A stretch of 64,000 nucleotides of DNA from Chlamydiales bacterium (GCA_965206695.1 CBDBKM010000011.1:224001-288000); one strand, 5' to 3'; counted from the stretch's first letter, positions 1 through 64,000 are shown. Notes: generated by a model from the sequence alone, not told the origin. Numbers and translations: made by a program.

Positions 1-1792
1 GAATGGGCTTTTTATCCGTCATGAAAGTATTGATCGTCATATTTGGAAAGATCAACCAAATGAAGGCCGTTTATATACCCCTTATGAATCAAAGTGCCGA
101 TTCTAAGACTTGAAAATGATCATTGATTCGTTTCCTCATTGATTGAGCAATAGAGGGCCAAGTATTTTCAAAAAATCCGGTAATCGATCTCCGAAATTCT
201 TTAGCAGAATTAAAAAACCGATTATTGCGACAATATTCATTCATCACTTTCCATAATCGTTCAATGGGATTGAGGTTAGGACTGTAAGAAGGTAAATAAT
301 AGAGAATAATACCTTGTTTTTCTGCTTCTTGTTTGGTCTGAATACTTGTATTATAAGGGCCTTGATCTAAAATAAGATGGATATTTGGAGCTGAGAGGTA
401 TTTTGACCGTAGCAAAGCAAAATGCTTTGCCATGGTACCGCTATTTAATGTTTCATAAGCATCTATTGTTACCTTCATACTGTTTAAATTGATAGACCCC
501 ATAAGATTCATTCGAGTACGAGAAGCTGTTGTTGCAATCAATTTATCTGTTCCCGGTCGAATCCAACCATAAAAAATTTTAGTTGCCATAGTTGGATGTA
601 CACCATCAGCAAATTCAACAGGCTCATTTTTAGGCAGAGATGCCATAAGCTTGGCGTAAAATTGCATCCAAGCTTTTTATTGATCAGAATTTGCCTTAGC
701 CGGTGTACCTTTAGGCTTTTTATAGGAAAAACCATGTGAGTGTAGCCAAGAAGTCATCCCTGAAATCGTATAAACAATGCCATATTTCGCGAGAACATAA
801 GAACAGATATCTTCTACTTTGACATAGGTATGAGTTGTTAAATGTTTAATGAATTCTTCTGACTGTGGCGCAAGAAGTTTACTGACTGAACCACCGCTTT
901 CTACATGCAATTGCTGTTTATTTTGATATTCTTTAATGTGACGAGACACTGTTTCATCGTCTAAAAGCACAGCTTCAGCAATACGAGTATTACTCCAACC
1001 TTTATTCGACAATAGAACAGCCTTGATACGATCTCGTATACGACCATTCTTTTCTCGTTTATGTTGCTGTCTGAGATGCTTTTCTTCTGATAGTGTTAAA
1101 AATGAATTCATACAAAATAATTTACACTATACGAATACAAAATATCCGGAGGTTTATTCGTGATGAGTATATAAGCATTTAAGACATCAGGGGAAGAAGT
1201 ATAACAAACGAGGTTCTGTCAAAGCTGACCGTGGCTATATTCCCAATAGGATTGATAGTGATGAAAGACCTGAGATTGTCGATATGAACACAAGGATAGG
1301 AGATTTTAAATGCGATACAATAATAGGAAGAAATCATAAAAAGGTGCTTGTCTCTATTATTGCCGGAGCTTCTAAAGATACAATGCTTATGAAGGTAGCA
1401 TTTAAACAGGCTCATGGTGTTGCTAATGCTTTAATTGAACCTTTAGAGCTTATTAAGGACAAAGTGTATACATTCACGACAGATAACGGTTTAGAATTTT
1501 CCAAGCATAAAGAGGCTAGTGCAAAACTTAACGCAGAGTTTTATTTTGCTAAACCCTATCGCTCCCGGAAAAAAGGATTGAATGAACAGACAAATGGACT
1601 TGTAAGACAGTATCTCCCTAAAAAAACTGATGTATCAAAAGTAACGGATGAAGAAGTAAAAAAAATAGAACATTTATTAAATAACAGACCAAGGAAAAGT
1701 TTGAATTTTAAAATGCCTATAGCGGTTTTCAATCAAAGAAATTTGAGGTATAATTGAGGTGCCTATTTGTTGCACTGCATAGTTGAAAAGGC
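1..1792 (+). pseudogene. IS30-family element (5' part outside window), transposase interrupted by IS630-A at 76-1169 and frameshifted
   Basis: Removing the IS630 and one TA rejoins HESIDRHIWKDQPNEGRLY|KHLRHQGKKY. Downstream ORF has DNGLEFS, FAKPY, GLNEQTNGLVRQYLPK. Terminal IR tgttgcactgcatagttgaaaaggc ends at 1792. Confidence 0.9.
76..1169 (-). mobile_element. IS630-family element A, copy 1 (1094 bp); transposase broken by a CAA>TAA stop at codon 145
   Basis: Near-identical to the 340-aa copies; ends tacccctta.../...gatgagta flanked by TA; ORFs 677-1111 and 89-667. Confidence 0.95.
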
Positions 1793-1898
1793 AAAGTATT
1801 ATATAAAACGATTTGTTTTTGCTAATGGAATTTTTATCTTTTTTGTGCTATATTATTTTTTTCTTTAGGATATTCCAACACAAGGTATTAGTAATATT

Positions 1899-2390
1899 AT
1901 GATTATTAGAACGGGTATTGGCCAGGATAGCCATCGTTTTTTAACAAACGATTCTTCAAAATCTTGTATACTGGGTGGAGTTGTTTTTGAAGGAATTCCG
2001 GGATTATCAGCTAATTCTGATGGAGATGTCATCTATCATGCGATTTGTAATGCCATTTCTTCGTTAACCGGAGTTTTAATTTTAGGCGGGATAGCAGATG
2101 ATCTTTGTCTTAAAGATGGCATAACGGATAGCCGGATATATTTACGGGAAGCTTCTAGAACATTAGGCAATCAGCGTCTGACGCATGTTGCTATTACAGT
2201 TGAAGCTAAAAGGCCTAAACTGAAACAACACTTTCAGAAGATACGCCAAAACATTGCAGATATTTTAAAGTTAGATATCTCCCGGGTGGGAATAACAGCG
2301 ACTTCCGGTGAAGGACTGACAGACTTTGGTTGCGGAGATGGTATGCAATGTATGTGTATTGTAACGTCTTCTGAAAATTCTTCTTATTGA
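1899..2390 (+). CDS. ispF: 2-C-methyl-D-erythritol 2,4-cyclodiphosphate synthase
   Basis: [21 protein letters not shown] and ATSGEGL motifs. Confidence 0.93.
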
Positions 2391-2462
2391 ATCATTGATT
2401 GAGTTTTGGTAAGGATATCCTGAGATTCTTTGAGATTAGAATCTTTCCATGCTTGAATATAT

Positions 2463-2900
2463 AGTGAATTAAATTTTATTTTTTATTTTATTCATGTAAA
2501 ATATCCGGATGACATATTCACTTGATTTAAGAAAACAAGCTTTAAAATATATTAAAAATGTGGGAACACGAAAAGAGGCCGGTGTCATTTTTCAGTTACA
2601 ACCCGCACTTTATCGAACCGGATTTCTCGAAAAAGACTGCAGATCTTAGCACCTACCAAAAAACGTCCTAGCCCAAGTAAAATTGATAGTAATAAACTTA
2701 AGCAATACCTTCAAAAATATCCGGATGCCTATTTTAGAAAAATTGCTCAAGAATGGGGTGTTACGATCCGGCTATTGTTTATACCTGTAAACGTTTGAAA
2801 CTAACCTTAAAAAAAGATCCTGTTCCACAAAGAAAGAGATGAAAAAAACGACAAGAGTTTCAAGAAACACTAAAAAATTAAATCCTTCAAAACAAGATAT
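2463..2900 (+). pseudogene. Degenerate 5' half of an IS630-C-like element abutting the murA start
   Basis: End tagtgaattaaatttt resembles the IR at 48881. Reads MTYSLDLRKQAL...KYPDAY...LKLTLKK with frameshifts. Confidence 0.8.
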
Positions 2901-62168: not shown

Positions 62169-62513
62169 TACACCACAGGAAGATCCTAAGAAGAATTTGT
62201 AGCAAGGATGCGTGATACAGTTCTTGAAGCACAGGAAGCACGTCTATACTCTTCACTACTGAAAGGTACACAAAAAATTATAGATATGATATTAACTTTG
62301 TATGAACCGGTTATCTTCAAGCCAAAGAAGCACTTTTGAATTTCAGGTAAAAAAGACGTCGTACTACAAAGAGCGGGATGACAAGAACAGAATAGAACTT
62401 ATAAGACTTCTGCATATGATAGAAAAACTTCGCTTAGTTATGAGTACGTACTCAAATGCAAGCCCCTAATTTTTAAATCTTAAAACAAATGCGTATGCTT
62501 TGTCAGACCGGAT

Positions 62514-63605
62514 TTATTCACCGGAGTCTACAACCTGTCCCTTTTCATTTTCTTGAAATGAAAAGTAACTAAATAGGTTACCTAATGAAGCTATAACAGT
62601 AGAGCCACATTCTTTAATGTAATTGAGATAGTAGTTCCTCTTATCTTCAACTTGTCTAGAATATAGTATTGTCACAGTTTTATCAGCATTGATTTTTAAT
62701 TTAGCCACTTCATTAGTAGAAGGAAAACGATTATTAAGCGTCTCTTGAATAAAGTGATATAGATTTTGAGCTTTTGGATAATGTCCGTGATCTTCAACAA
62801 TGGATGTACAATTAACCACCTGTATATTTCTTGCTATCTTCTCAAGGTCTTGAGTACCGCAATACCCTAAAGCATAATTCATCTCAACAACAGGATATAA
62901 CCATCTTAATACACTATCATTTTCAGAAGTGAAAACGTACATATCCTCACATTTTTTAGACACGTTATAAAACTCATGCCCTTCTTCTAACGCATCAAAG
63001 TTAATAGCCGGAGCTAGAGCAAAGATGTTACGAAGAACAGGCTTTTTATATTCATCTATTTGATCCAACGCTTTAAATAACGCTAAATTACCCATACTAT
63101 GAGCAACTACATCAACCTTATCTGCTATCTGAGATAAATGGGTAATATGATCTTTAACTCTCGGAACAAGAAGCTCGACATTTTGTTTAGCAGCTAAATA
63201 CGACCATTGAGCTTCATATCCCGGCCATACATAACCAACTACTGCATCATAAGGACCATCCGAAAGAGGTGTTCCATAAAAATAGTTCTCTACTCTTCGA
63301 TAAATATTGGAGATACTACCTAGATCCGATTCTAATTTTTCCACTTCATCTTTAAGCTTATAATAGGAATTAACCAGAAGAGGGCCTGTACTGTTATAGC
63401 CATGCATCACAAACAAGATACGCTTTCCTTTTAGGGAATCAAAAAAAAGATCCTGATCCTCAGTTGATACTGATTCCGATGTTCCATCTCTTTTTAACCA
63501 TCGACATTGTGATTGTTCAGAAAGATAGTTAGGATCTAAAAAATTTTCACCACCCCTATCACTTACGATAAATATGGAATCACTCTGTATCATCATTATC
63601 CTCAA
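62514..63605 (-). CDS. Alpha/beta hydrolase (DUF900-like)
   Basis: MHGYN, YVWP, VVAHSMG nucleophile elbow, S.ND.VL, His near DHGHY. Confidence 0.82.
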   Translation of the reverse strand: MRIMMIQSDSIFIVSDRGGENFLDPNYLSEQSQCRWLKRDGTSESVSTEDQDLFFDSLKGKRILFVMHGYNSTGPLLVNSYYKLKDEVEKLESDLGSISNIYRRVENYFYGTPLSDGPYDAVVGYVWPGYEAQWSYLAAKQNVELLVPRVKDHITHLSQIADKVDVVAHSMGNLALFKALDQIDEYKKPVLRNIFALAPAINFDALEEGHEFYNVSKKCEDMYVFTSENDSVLRWLYPVVEMNYALGYCGTQDLEKIARNIQVVNCTSIVEDHGHYPKAQNLYHFIQETLNNRFPSTNEVAKLKINADKTVTILYSRQVEDKRNYYLNYIKECGSTVIASLGNLFSYFSFQENEKGQVVDSGE

Positions 63606-63670
63606 AATTTAAATTTAATAAGATTGTAACTTTAATAAATGAAAAACACAACTAAACAAATTATTTTGTA

Positions 63671-64000
63671 CTAGGGCAAGATAGTTGATTCTTTAGTTAA
63701 CAATTCAGATGAGATTTTATCAATATAATTCTCAGGAAGGCACTTTCTGGTTTTTAAGCCTAATCCTTTCAAATTCTCAGCCTTTTTCATTAAATTACCT
63801 CGACCTGTTGCAAGCTTATTAAAAGCTGATTGATAGGCTTGTTCAGCTAAATTTAAATTTTTTCCGATTTTTTCCATATCTTGGACAAAATCAACAAATT
63901 TATCGTATAAAGCACCACCCTCACGTGCAATTTTATCAGCATTTAAATTCCTTTTTTCCATCCGCCACAATGAATCGATTGTCTTTAACATAGCATAGAC
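63671..64000 (-). CDS. rmuC: DNA recombination protein RmuC, 3' part
   Basis: LKTIDSLWRME...NA.KIA.EGGALYDKF...KL.TGRGNL...LK.LG. Confidence 0.88.
   Translation of the reverse strand, partial: VYAMLKTIDSLWRMEKRNLNADKIAREGGALYDKFVDFVQDMEKIGKNLNLAEQAYQSAFNKLATGRGNLMKKAENLKGLGLKTRKCLPENYIDKISSELLTKESTILP

Follow-up and report, generated by a model that had tools for sequence, protein, structure and literature searches.

Excess of CCGG in a chlamydial genome as the probable footprint of a Vsr repair nuclease tied to an HpaII-type methylase

Why should CCGG be so abundant in the AT-rich genome of an intracellular bacterium? The question was raised by a 64,000-nucleotide stretch of DNA (the window) from Chlamydiales bacterium (GCA_965206695.1 CBDBKM010000011.1:224001-288000), which in our numbering is G000:C11:224001-288000, contig C11 of an assembly, G000, of 2.46 Mb in 13 contigs. 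A first-pass annotation of the window had noticed a drive from CTGG and CCAG to CCGG along its whole length. It had attributed this to a C5-cytosine methylase for CCGG acting together with a nuclease resembling Vsr, the endonuclease of very-short-patch repair, as a directional mutator. That reading is supported by the frame dependence of the skew, by the genes that the genome carries and by its relatives. With a probability of roughly 0.87, judged from sequence data, we consider the excess of CCGG to be the footprint of a Vsr tied to a CCGG-methylating HpaII-type system, repairing T:G mismatches toward C:G.

The window has a guanine plus cytosine (GC) content of 35.3%, from which 62 CCGG per strand are expected; 279 per strand were found (558 on both strands). 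CTGG and CCAG together occur 75 times on one strand, against approximately 228 expected from base composition. The expected 3.7-fold excess of these two words over CCGG, which the first-pass annotation had put at 3-4 fold for about 35% GC, has been turned into a 3.7-fold deficit. Markov correction, suggested there as a check, leaves the CCGG excess standing: the maximal-order ratios in the window are 1.75x for CCGG and 0.38x for CTGG/CCAG. Matches elsewhere in the genome cover 37.7% of the window, mostly as insertion sequences, and as many as 188 segments match at a single place. The repeated 24.1 kb contain 143 CCGG against 8 CTGG or CCAG, and the unique 39.9 kb contain 136 against 67. As the unique part is also skewed, repeats alone do not carry the skew.

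The words that survive are informative in two genes that had been counted by hand in the first-pass annotation, and those counts proved exact. The murA gene (2900..4267, + strand; TIGR01072, 481 bits, above the cut-off) has five CCGG and two CTGG, both of the latter in the leucine frame CTG-G (hyphens mark codon boundaries). The alaS gene (43090..45720, - strand; TIGR00344, 907 bits) has nine CCGG against three CTGG and one CCAG, with all four survivors in non-synonymous frames (CTG-G twice, C-TGG once and CC-AG once). All six survivors (CTG-G 4, C-TGG 1, CC-AG 1) thus lie where conversion would alter the protein, as had been claimed. When the 17 long unique open reading frames (ORFs) of the window were tallied, 47 of 49 surviving CTGG/CCAG were non-synonymous.

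The skew extends to all 13 contigs of the assembly. On both strands of the whole genome there are 20258 CCGG, compared with 4723 expected from base composition (M0) or 12091 from a maximal-order Markov model. The first comparison gives a 4.3-fold excess (4.29 observed/M0) and the second a ratio of 1.68 (z +106), which no other of the 256 tetramers reaches. CTGG and CCAG were each found 3338 times against a Markov expectation of 7921, a ratio of 0.42 (z -62) that is the lowest of any tetramer. The approximately 10,000 CCGG sites account for 15% of all CpGs in the genome. Flanking bases were without effect, the share of CTGG being 6.5-9.9% whatever the flank.

To determine how the skew depends on reading frame, the longest ORFs that did not overlap (at least 100 codons; n=2043, covering 1.90 of the 2.46 Mb) served as a crude gene set. 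In these, CTGG occurs 1198 times as leucine CTG-G and 707 times as xxC-TGG with tryptophan, and 151 times in the synonymous frame xCT-GGx. CCAG occurs 576 times as xCC-AGx, 221 times as xxC-CAG and 132 times in the synonymous frame CCA-G. The corresponding counts for CCGG are 2764 for CCG-G, 4600 for xCC-GGx and 789 for xxC-CGG. The synonymous targets have therefore nearly gone (NCT-GG 151 vs NCC-GG 4600; CCA-G 132 vs CCG-G 2764), with about 97% of synonymous NCY-GG sites and 95% of CCR-G sites now being CCGG. Codon usage is distorted to match. NCT codons make up 1-2% before GG and 28-50% elsewhere, and NCC codons rise from 11-19% to 48-58% before GG; before G, CCA drops from 19-29% to 2% and CCG climbs from 6-13% to 39%. 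Intergenic DNA (566 kb) contains 1993 CCGG and 360 CTGG or CCAG, so that 85% of sites are CCGG. Leucine CTG-G shows no depletion (6.8% of leucine codons before G vs 5.3% elsewhere), C-TGG and CC-AGN are mildly depleted, and C-CAG is about 2.6-fold rarer relative to C-CAA. This breakdown by codon position, likewise put forward in the first-pass annotation, confines the conversion mostly to synonymous frames. The effect is mutational: it is greatest where a change is synonymous or falls in non-coding DNA, and selection restrains it at other positions.

Selection did not hold every one of these other sites. We compared the ORFs with 405 ORFs found in 443 kb of sequence from seven Vsr-less genomes of the same family; 125 ORFs of G000 had a match (at least 40% identity and at least 60% coverage), the other 1918 being without a usable one. 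The predicted donor residues are leucine for proline CCG-G, tryptophan or glutamine for arginine C-CGG, and serine or arginine for glycine CC-GGN. Proline CCG-G was aligned to leucine in 8 of 198 cases (26 of 1535 for other proline codons), and glycine CC-GGN to serine or arginine in 24 of 286 (95 of 2464 for other glycine codons). The arginine codons CGA, CGC, CGT, AGA and AGG were aligned to tryptophan or glutamine in 77 of 1669 cases and to arginine in 965 of 1669; for C-CGG the figures were 7 of 24 and 2 of 24, respectively. When the three classes were pooled, the predicted donor residue was found opposite 39 of 508 context codons and 203 of 5731 others (p = 3e-5). Sites for leucine, tryptophan, glutamine, serine and arginine have been kept largely by purifying selection, and a measurable excess of replacements has got through.

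Profile searches identified both of the enzymes that the first-pass annotation had predicted, on the window's own contig and 34,998 bases past its end. The cassette (G000:C11:322998-325584, + strand) comprises three intact genes, all on the + strand. These encode a C5-cytosine methylase of 308 residues (C11:322998-323924; PF00145, E 2e-79), an HpaII-family endonuclease of 355 residues (C11:323905-324972; PF09561, E 1.1e-103) and a Vsr of 142 residues (C11:325156-325584; TIGR00632, E 1e-44). The methylase and endonuclease genes share 20 bases, and a gap of 183 bases separates the latter from vsr. The endonuclease is full length, residues 6-353 covering positions 1-359 of the 359 in the PF09561 profile, and its nearest named relative is 'Type-2 restriction enzyme HpaII [Waddlia chondrophila]' at 51% identity.

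The methylase scores 267.6 bits against PF00145, in two stretches around a short variable region, and 257 bits against TIGR00675, and it matches M.HhaI chains (E 6e-69). Its sequence contains FPCQPFS, ENV and GNSV blocks, which we take to be the conserved catalytic and S-adenosylmethionine motifs. The Vsr exceeds the cut-offs of both of its families (PF03852, 117.8 bits against 27; TIGR00632, 151.4 bits against 97.85, over profile positions 1-118 of 119) and aligns to E. coli Vsr (PDB 1CW0) over 136 residues (E 2e-35). The aligned blocks are PGhPDlv/PGrPDfv, hGCFWHyHdC/hGCFWHhHhC, FW/FW and iiWlC/ivWeC, which shows conservation of GCFWHxHxC, of PD within PGxPD and of the late W-x-C. These presumably include the catalytic aspartate and the zinc-binding and intercalating residues described in structural work on the E. 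coli enzyme. The cassette genes themselves contain five CCGG and four CTGG/CCAG, all four of the latter non-synonymous. A short second C5-methylase fragment (profile positions 44-84) lies at G000:C10:276494-276613; it has a TAA stop inside the match and is probably a remnant.

The activity of Vsr in E. coli suggests how such a cassette could produce the skew. The E. coli enzyme nicks 5' of the T of a T:G mismatch in the Dcm context, and the G strand then serves as template for refilling a short patch; the repair is blind to which strand is new, and T>C changes are also fixed. In the mechanism that we propose for G000, the C5-methylase of the HpaII-type system would mark the inner cytosine of CCGG, and Vsr would nick beside the T of a T:G mismatch in the CTGG/CCGG context. 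The short patch would be resynthesized from the G strand, the outcome always being C:G, and methylated CCGG would thereby be protected from deamination. Since the repair would ignore the original strand, genuine CTGG and CCAG would also become CCGG whenever a T:G mismatch arose. Over a long residence this would amount to a one-way mutational drive.

Relatives of the organism served as controls. It is a chlamydia, its best AlaS relatives being Chlamydiae and Parachlamydiaceae metagenome-assembled genomes at 58-60% identity. The other genomes were sampled at 27-260 kb each and CCGG was counted in the sampled stretches, both as observed/M0 and as the ratio NCT-GG : NCC-GG; "no Vsr" denotes that none was found in assemblies 94-99% complete. 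Of 401 genomes sampled from the phylum, 15 have a Vsr that scores above the cut-off, which makes fair the remark in the first-pass annotation that such a system was unexpected here. A methylase orthologue (E at most 1e-40) was identified in 10 of 400 genomes, and no HpaII-family endonuclease was found among 40 relatives. The complete three-gene cassette, at 67-75% identity, is present in G282 and G374, both from outside the family. G004, of the same family, has a methylase (68% identical) and a Vsr (59% identical) in overlapping genes, without the endonuclease.

Among carriers of the methylase orthologue the direction of the skew flips with Vsr. Where both genes are present, CCGG observed/M0 (with NCT-GG : NCC-GG) is 4.29 (151:4600) in G000, 2.71 (13:664) in G004, 2.76 (20:139) in G080, 2.05 (57:83) in G374, 1.62 (2:44) in G282, 1.56 (2:45) in G310 and 1.10 (36:133) in G340. 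Where the methylase was found and no Vsr was, the values are 0.20 (30:0) in G064, 0.10 (83:1) in G161 and 0.73 (92:7) in G176; these orthologues are 51-57% identical to that of G000. In G064 and G161, CTGG/CCAG are up at 1.2-1.6x, and CTGG is at 1.58x in G176. Three genomes with neither gene gave 0.42 (136:34; G002), 0.57 (140:43; G007) and 0.80 (110:39; G043). In first samples of 11-40 kb from seven Vsr-less same-family genomes, CCGG/(CTGG+CCAG) is 0.10-0.23, against 3.0 in G000. The decay toward CTGG/CCAG in the methylase-only genomes is as 5-methylcytosine (5mC) at the inner position would predict, and is indirect support for the putative methylation of the inner cytosine of CCGG.

Two of the methylase-only genomes deserve mention in their own right. 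G064 and G161 are small genomes of the Chlamydiaceae family in which CCGG is nearly erased (NCC-GG 0 of 30 and 1 of 84), which on these counts reads as a strong footprint of 5mC decay. The position of the genes was also recurrent. In G080, a 1.1-Mb genome of another family, vsr lies directly after rplT-pheS with no adjoining methylase (C2:106001-124000, L191 7731-9747), and the methylase orthologue is on another contig. The G000 cassette is also downstream of pheS, with a DDE transposase between (L005 1281-6584). This location may represent a shared insertion site or old synteny.

Insertion sequences gave a view of more recent change. Their copies were used since close relatives are unsuitable for polarizing substitutions: G000 is the sole member of its genus among the 40 relatives, and AlaS of other members of the family is no more than about 60% identical. 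Self-comparison of the window revealed insertion-sequence stretches at, for example, 69-1814, 19074-21126, 25440-27544, 46852-48136, 51695-52659, 56077-58501 and 61222-62181. The commonest family (one copy at 51695..52659) has 126 copies of at least 90% length, 92-100% identical to the reference copy (median 99.2%), and a consensus with nine CCGG and no CTGG/CCAG. The second (one copy at 15718..16826) has 42 such copies, 97-100% identical (median 98.6%), and a consensus with four CCGG and no CTGG/CCAG. As neither consensus contains CTGG/CCAG, protection of CCGG can be counted here and forward conversions cannot. Among 261 distinct variants in the 126 + 42 copies, the 13 consensus CCGG had undergone no inner C>T/G>A change and six outer transitions (Fisher p = 0.023); there were two inner transversions.

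Some DNA in the genome has escaped conversion. CTGG+CCAG exceed CCGG in 13 of 473 ten-kb intervals, all of which are on contig C10, where they form three islands. The first (G000:C10:~58000-95000; L126, L127) is a hybrid nonribosomal peptide synthetase-polyketide synthase (NRPS-PKS) cluster with NCT-GG : NCC-GG of 25:11. It encodes an NRPS of 3620 residues, more NRPS/PKS genes, a P450, a thioesterase, a phosphopantetheinyl transferase and a penicillin amidase, and its lack of skew suggests a recent import. The second (G000:C10:~120000-136000; L128) has a serine recombinase, a Toprim/DUF5906 primase-like gene and a type I HsdR, and the third (G000:C10:~335000-348000; L129) a family-A DNA polymerase, an AAA_25 protein and an IS605-type TnpB. 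Together the islands contain 45 of the genome's 151 NCT-GG and 34 of its 132 CCA-G. Within the window, a unique and largely non-coding patch between two insertion-sequence copies (21400..23560) has 12 CTGG/CCAG and one CCGG. It contains one ORF of 163 codons (21998-22489, + strand) with a start resembling a signal peptide, and is probably a recent arrival that is still unconverted.

Several observations weigh against a Vsr-driven footprint. The three islands and the window patch mean that any drive is slow, or has stopped. Karlin's tau is 1.19 for CCGG, a low value because tau divides out the inflated CCG/CGG; for CTGG/CCAG it is 0.45. The closest named relatives of the methylase are labelled simply 'DNA (cytosine-5-)-methyltransferase', none of its best 120 homologues carries a specificity name, and its presumed specificity for CCGG is drawn from its HpaII-family neighbor and the genome footprints. 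Six genomes with Vsr had little or no CCGG skew in 20-kb samples (G267 0.41x, G367 0.73x, G226 1.00x, G325 1.23x, G260 1.53x and G241 1.62x). The G367 Vsr match contains a stop, and in these six the methylases adjoining Vsr, where seen, are 31-34% identical to that of G000. G374 has the full cassette and yet a partial skew (57:83), and G160 is skewed (1.98x, 8:70) despite a different methylase beside its Vsr, an exception to the pattern. The comparison samples, moreover, are small and include non-independent kin. In G160 (C46:44001-62000, L192 7021-9642) Vsr follows a C5-methylase of 345 residues (34% identical) and a HindVP-family endonuclease.

The unconverted regions (the islands amount to ~60-70 kb in all, besides the 2-kb patch) are what would be expected if the methylase and Vsr once drove the conversion and are now silent, unexpressed or recently inactivated, the excess simply persisting; the wording of the first-pass annotation, "has or had", had already allowed for this. 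We consider such a relic unlikely. All three genes are full length with their motifs kept, an intact HpaII-family endonuclease would presumably be tolerable only if CCGG were kept methylated, and an unprotected excess would be expected to decay in an AT-rich genome. The insertion-sequence families of closely similar copies, with their consensus free of CTGG/CCAG and without a single inner transition at CCGG, likewise argue for a drive that may still be active. An error of base-calling, in which methylation-dependent signals were written as CCGG in place of CTGG/CCAG, would owe its appeal to the read technology of the assembly and the library type being off record; run X1 is probably the source sample. 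Conversion that respects the reading frame excludes such an artefact for practical purposes, and we regard its probability as negligible: it would need knowledge of the frame (CTGG 151 vs 1198), and it would somehow have left three islands of this assembly untouched and appeared again in six more assemblies that contain the methylase orthologue and Vsr. The independent Logan contigs of run X1, in addition, did not differ from the window at a single one of 15,001 positions (31800-46800). Two further runs, X2 and X3, contained almost none of the stretch, and no RNA run was listed for it.

Biased repair might also be dispensed with if selection favored CCGG, for example through a regulatory or structural role of the methylated site. 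CCGG is over-represented, without explanation, in 41 Helicobacter genomes with CCGG systems, and a positive effect of methylation is considered in the accessible text of that survey (PMC4687349). We find selection very improbable in G000, as the excess is equal at synonymous and intergenic sites and independent of the flank, the depleted words are exactly the two one-step deamination products, and amino-acid replacements have been dragged along. The sign of the skew also flips with Vsr among carriers of one methylase, and selection on some 10,000 sites would be implausible in a symbiont of small population. Similarly slender is the chance that Vsr is a bystander and that the bias comes from the methylase itself or from some other activity specific for T:G, a glycosylase for example. 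The methylase and Vsr are nearly always together in skewed genomes, which makes their effects hard to separate, and G160 is skewed with a different methylase. However, two of the three methylase-only genomes are skewed in the opposite direction (CCGG 0.10-0.20x) and the third is at 0.73x. A methylase alone predicts the loss of its sites, as described for RCCGGY in Vibrio cholerae in the available part of a preprint (10.1101/070839).

G004, in which the methylase and Vsr genes lie at L102:5596-6522 and 6464-6931, appears on sequence composition to have a broader form of the drive, relaxed to a three-base context (CTG/CAG > CCG/CGG). In its samples (L089, L097, L102, L106-L115) CCGA is at 2.69x, CCGG at 2.71x and CCGT at 1.78x, with CTGN at 0.36-0.67x and CTAG at 0.04x. 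Its CpG rho is 1.39, and it has 68.7 CpG per kb against 23.5-24.9 in its kin and 83.6 TpG+CpA against 121. The GC content of G004 is 44.5%, compared with 36-39% in seven same-family genomes; some two thirds of this rise, which puts G004 6-7 points above its family, could come from the gain of CpG. A wider interpretation, in which the methylase-Vsr pair of this sister genus has lost its endonuclease, is that Vsr acts as a genome-scale biased conversion which overrides protein selection, clocks imported DNA and may raise overall GC. We offer this tentatively and rate it at clearly less than an even chance; if true, one repair gene would be a major determinant of the base composition of an endosymbiont.

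The mismatch-repair gene mutS of G000 was found in at least six pieces in different frames on the minus strand of G000:C10:2155-4817 (L193). The pieces correspond to domains I at 4413-4817, II at 4180-4386, III at 3738-3899 and 3613-3750, IV at 3080-3562 and V at 2155-3036. This broken gene is the sole MutS_V match in G000, mutL is open over 627 codons, and mutS has open frames of 858-891 codons in 11 of 12 relatives. As the mutS domains still score strongly, the gene would have been broken recently; a contig end is 2-5 kb away, and an assembly error is possible. The idea that loss of MutS is required for a strong drive was rejected, as mutS is open (825-861 codons) in the skewed G004, G080, G160 and G310.

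These findings may provide one of the clearest natural demonstrations of a repair enzyme's strand-blindness rewriting a genome. Three classes of chlamydial genome, those carrying the methylase orthologue and Vsr together, those carrying just the orthologue and those lacking both, allow the mutagenic cost of 5mC to be told apart from over-correction by Vsr; in E. coli this could only be inferred from a 26% excess. They also indicate that a restriction site can be strongly over-represented despite the genome's own endonuclease. Context-dependent codon usage of this magnitude would mislead methods for codon bias, horizontal transfer and binning. Conversely, a missing skew flags recent imports, here the NRPS-PKS cluster and two mobile elements.

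Of the known systems, the HpaII system of Haemophilus parainfluenzae is similar in layout: it reportedly has an adjacent vsr-like gene (Kulakauskas et al., 1994), and in G000 also an HpaII-family endonuclease, a C5-methylase and Vsr are clustered. We are not aware that a genome-wide skew has been described for it. E. coli Dcm/Vsr shares with G000 a C5-methylase, an adjacent and homologous vsr, repair (presumed in G000) of T:G mismatches to C:G in the context of the methylase's site, a target word that is over-represented and T-containing neighbors that are under-represented. Unlike in E. coli, the word in G000 is CCGG rather than CCWGG, a cognate restriction enzyme is present and the synonymous targets are nearly exhausted. 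That very-short-patch repair has altered oligonucleotide abundance in E. coli was reportedly proposed by Bhagwat and McClelland (1992), and its genome footprint was also treated by Merkl et al. (1992) (both as cited in PMC4687349 and 10.1101/070839). CCWGG is in excess by 26% in E. coli K-12 (12050 observed vs 9497 expected), and RCCGGY is 30% under-represented in V. cholerae, which lacks Vsr (10.1101/070839). The excess of CCGG in G000 is 329% over base composition and 68% with the strictest Markov correction.

Other systems share parts of this arrangement, again as described in the accessible text of the sources. Caulobacter ScmA/VsrA (PMC12907096) also pairs a Vsr-family nuclease with a C5-methylase at a site containing CCGG (YGCCGGCR), as do the Vsr endonucleases of Neisseria (PMC6116569). 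The work on both concerns fitness and enzyme activity (PMC12907096, PMC6116569), and a term search of the available Caulobacter text found nothing on motif over-representation (PMC12907096). Our literature search, which left most subscription journals outside its scope, found no paper tying Vsr or very-short-patch repair to chlamydiae, and none that described this skew. Helicobacter resembles G000 in that a resident CCGG restriction-modification system coexists with an excess, not an avoidance, of its site. There, however, the ratio is about 1.4-1.5 on the measure of its survey and is unexplained (PMC4687349), and Helicobacter is without Vsr homologues according to a preprint (10.1101/070839), whereas in G000 Vsr is present and the mechanism can be traced. 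For E. coli Dcm/Vsr the mechanism was put forward in 1992; G000 stands out by the magnitude of the skew, the host group and the flip in sign among carriers of the methylase.

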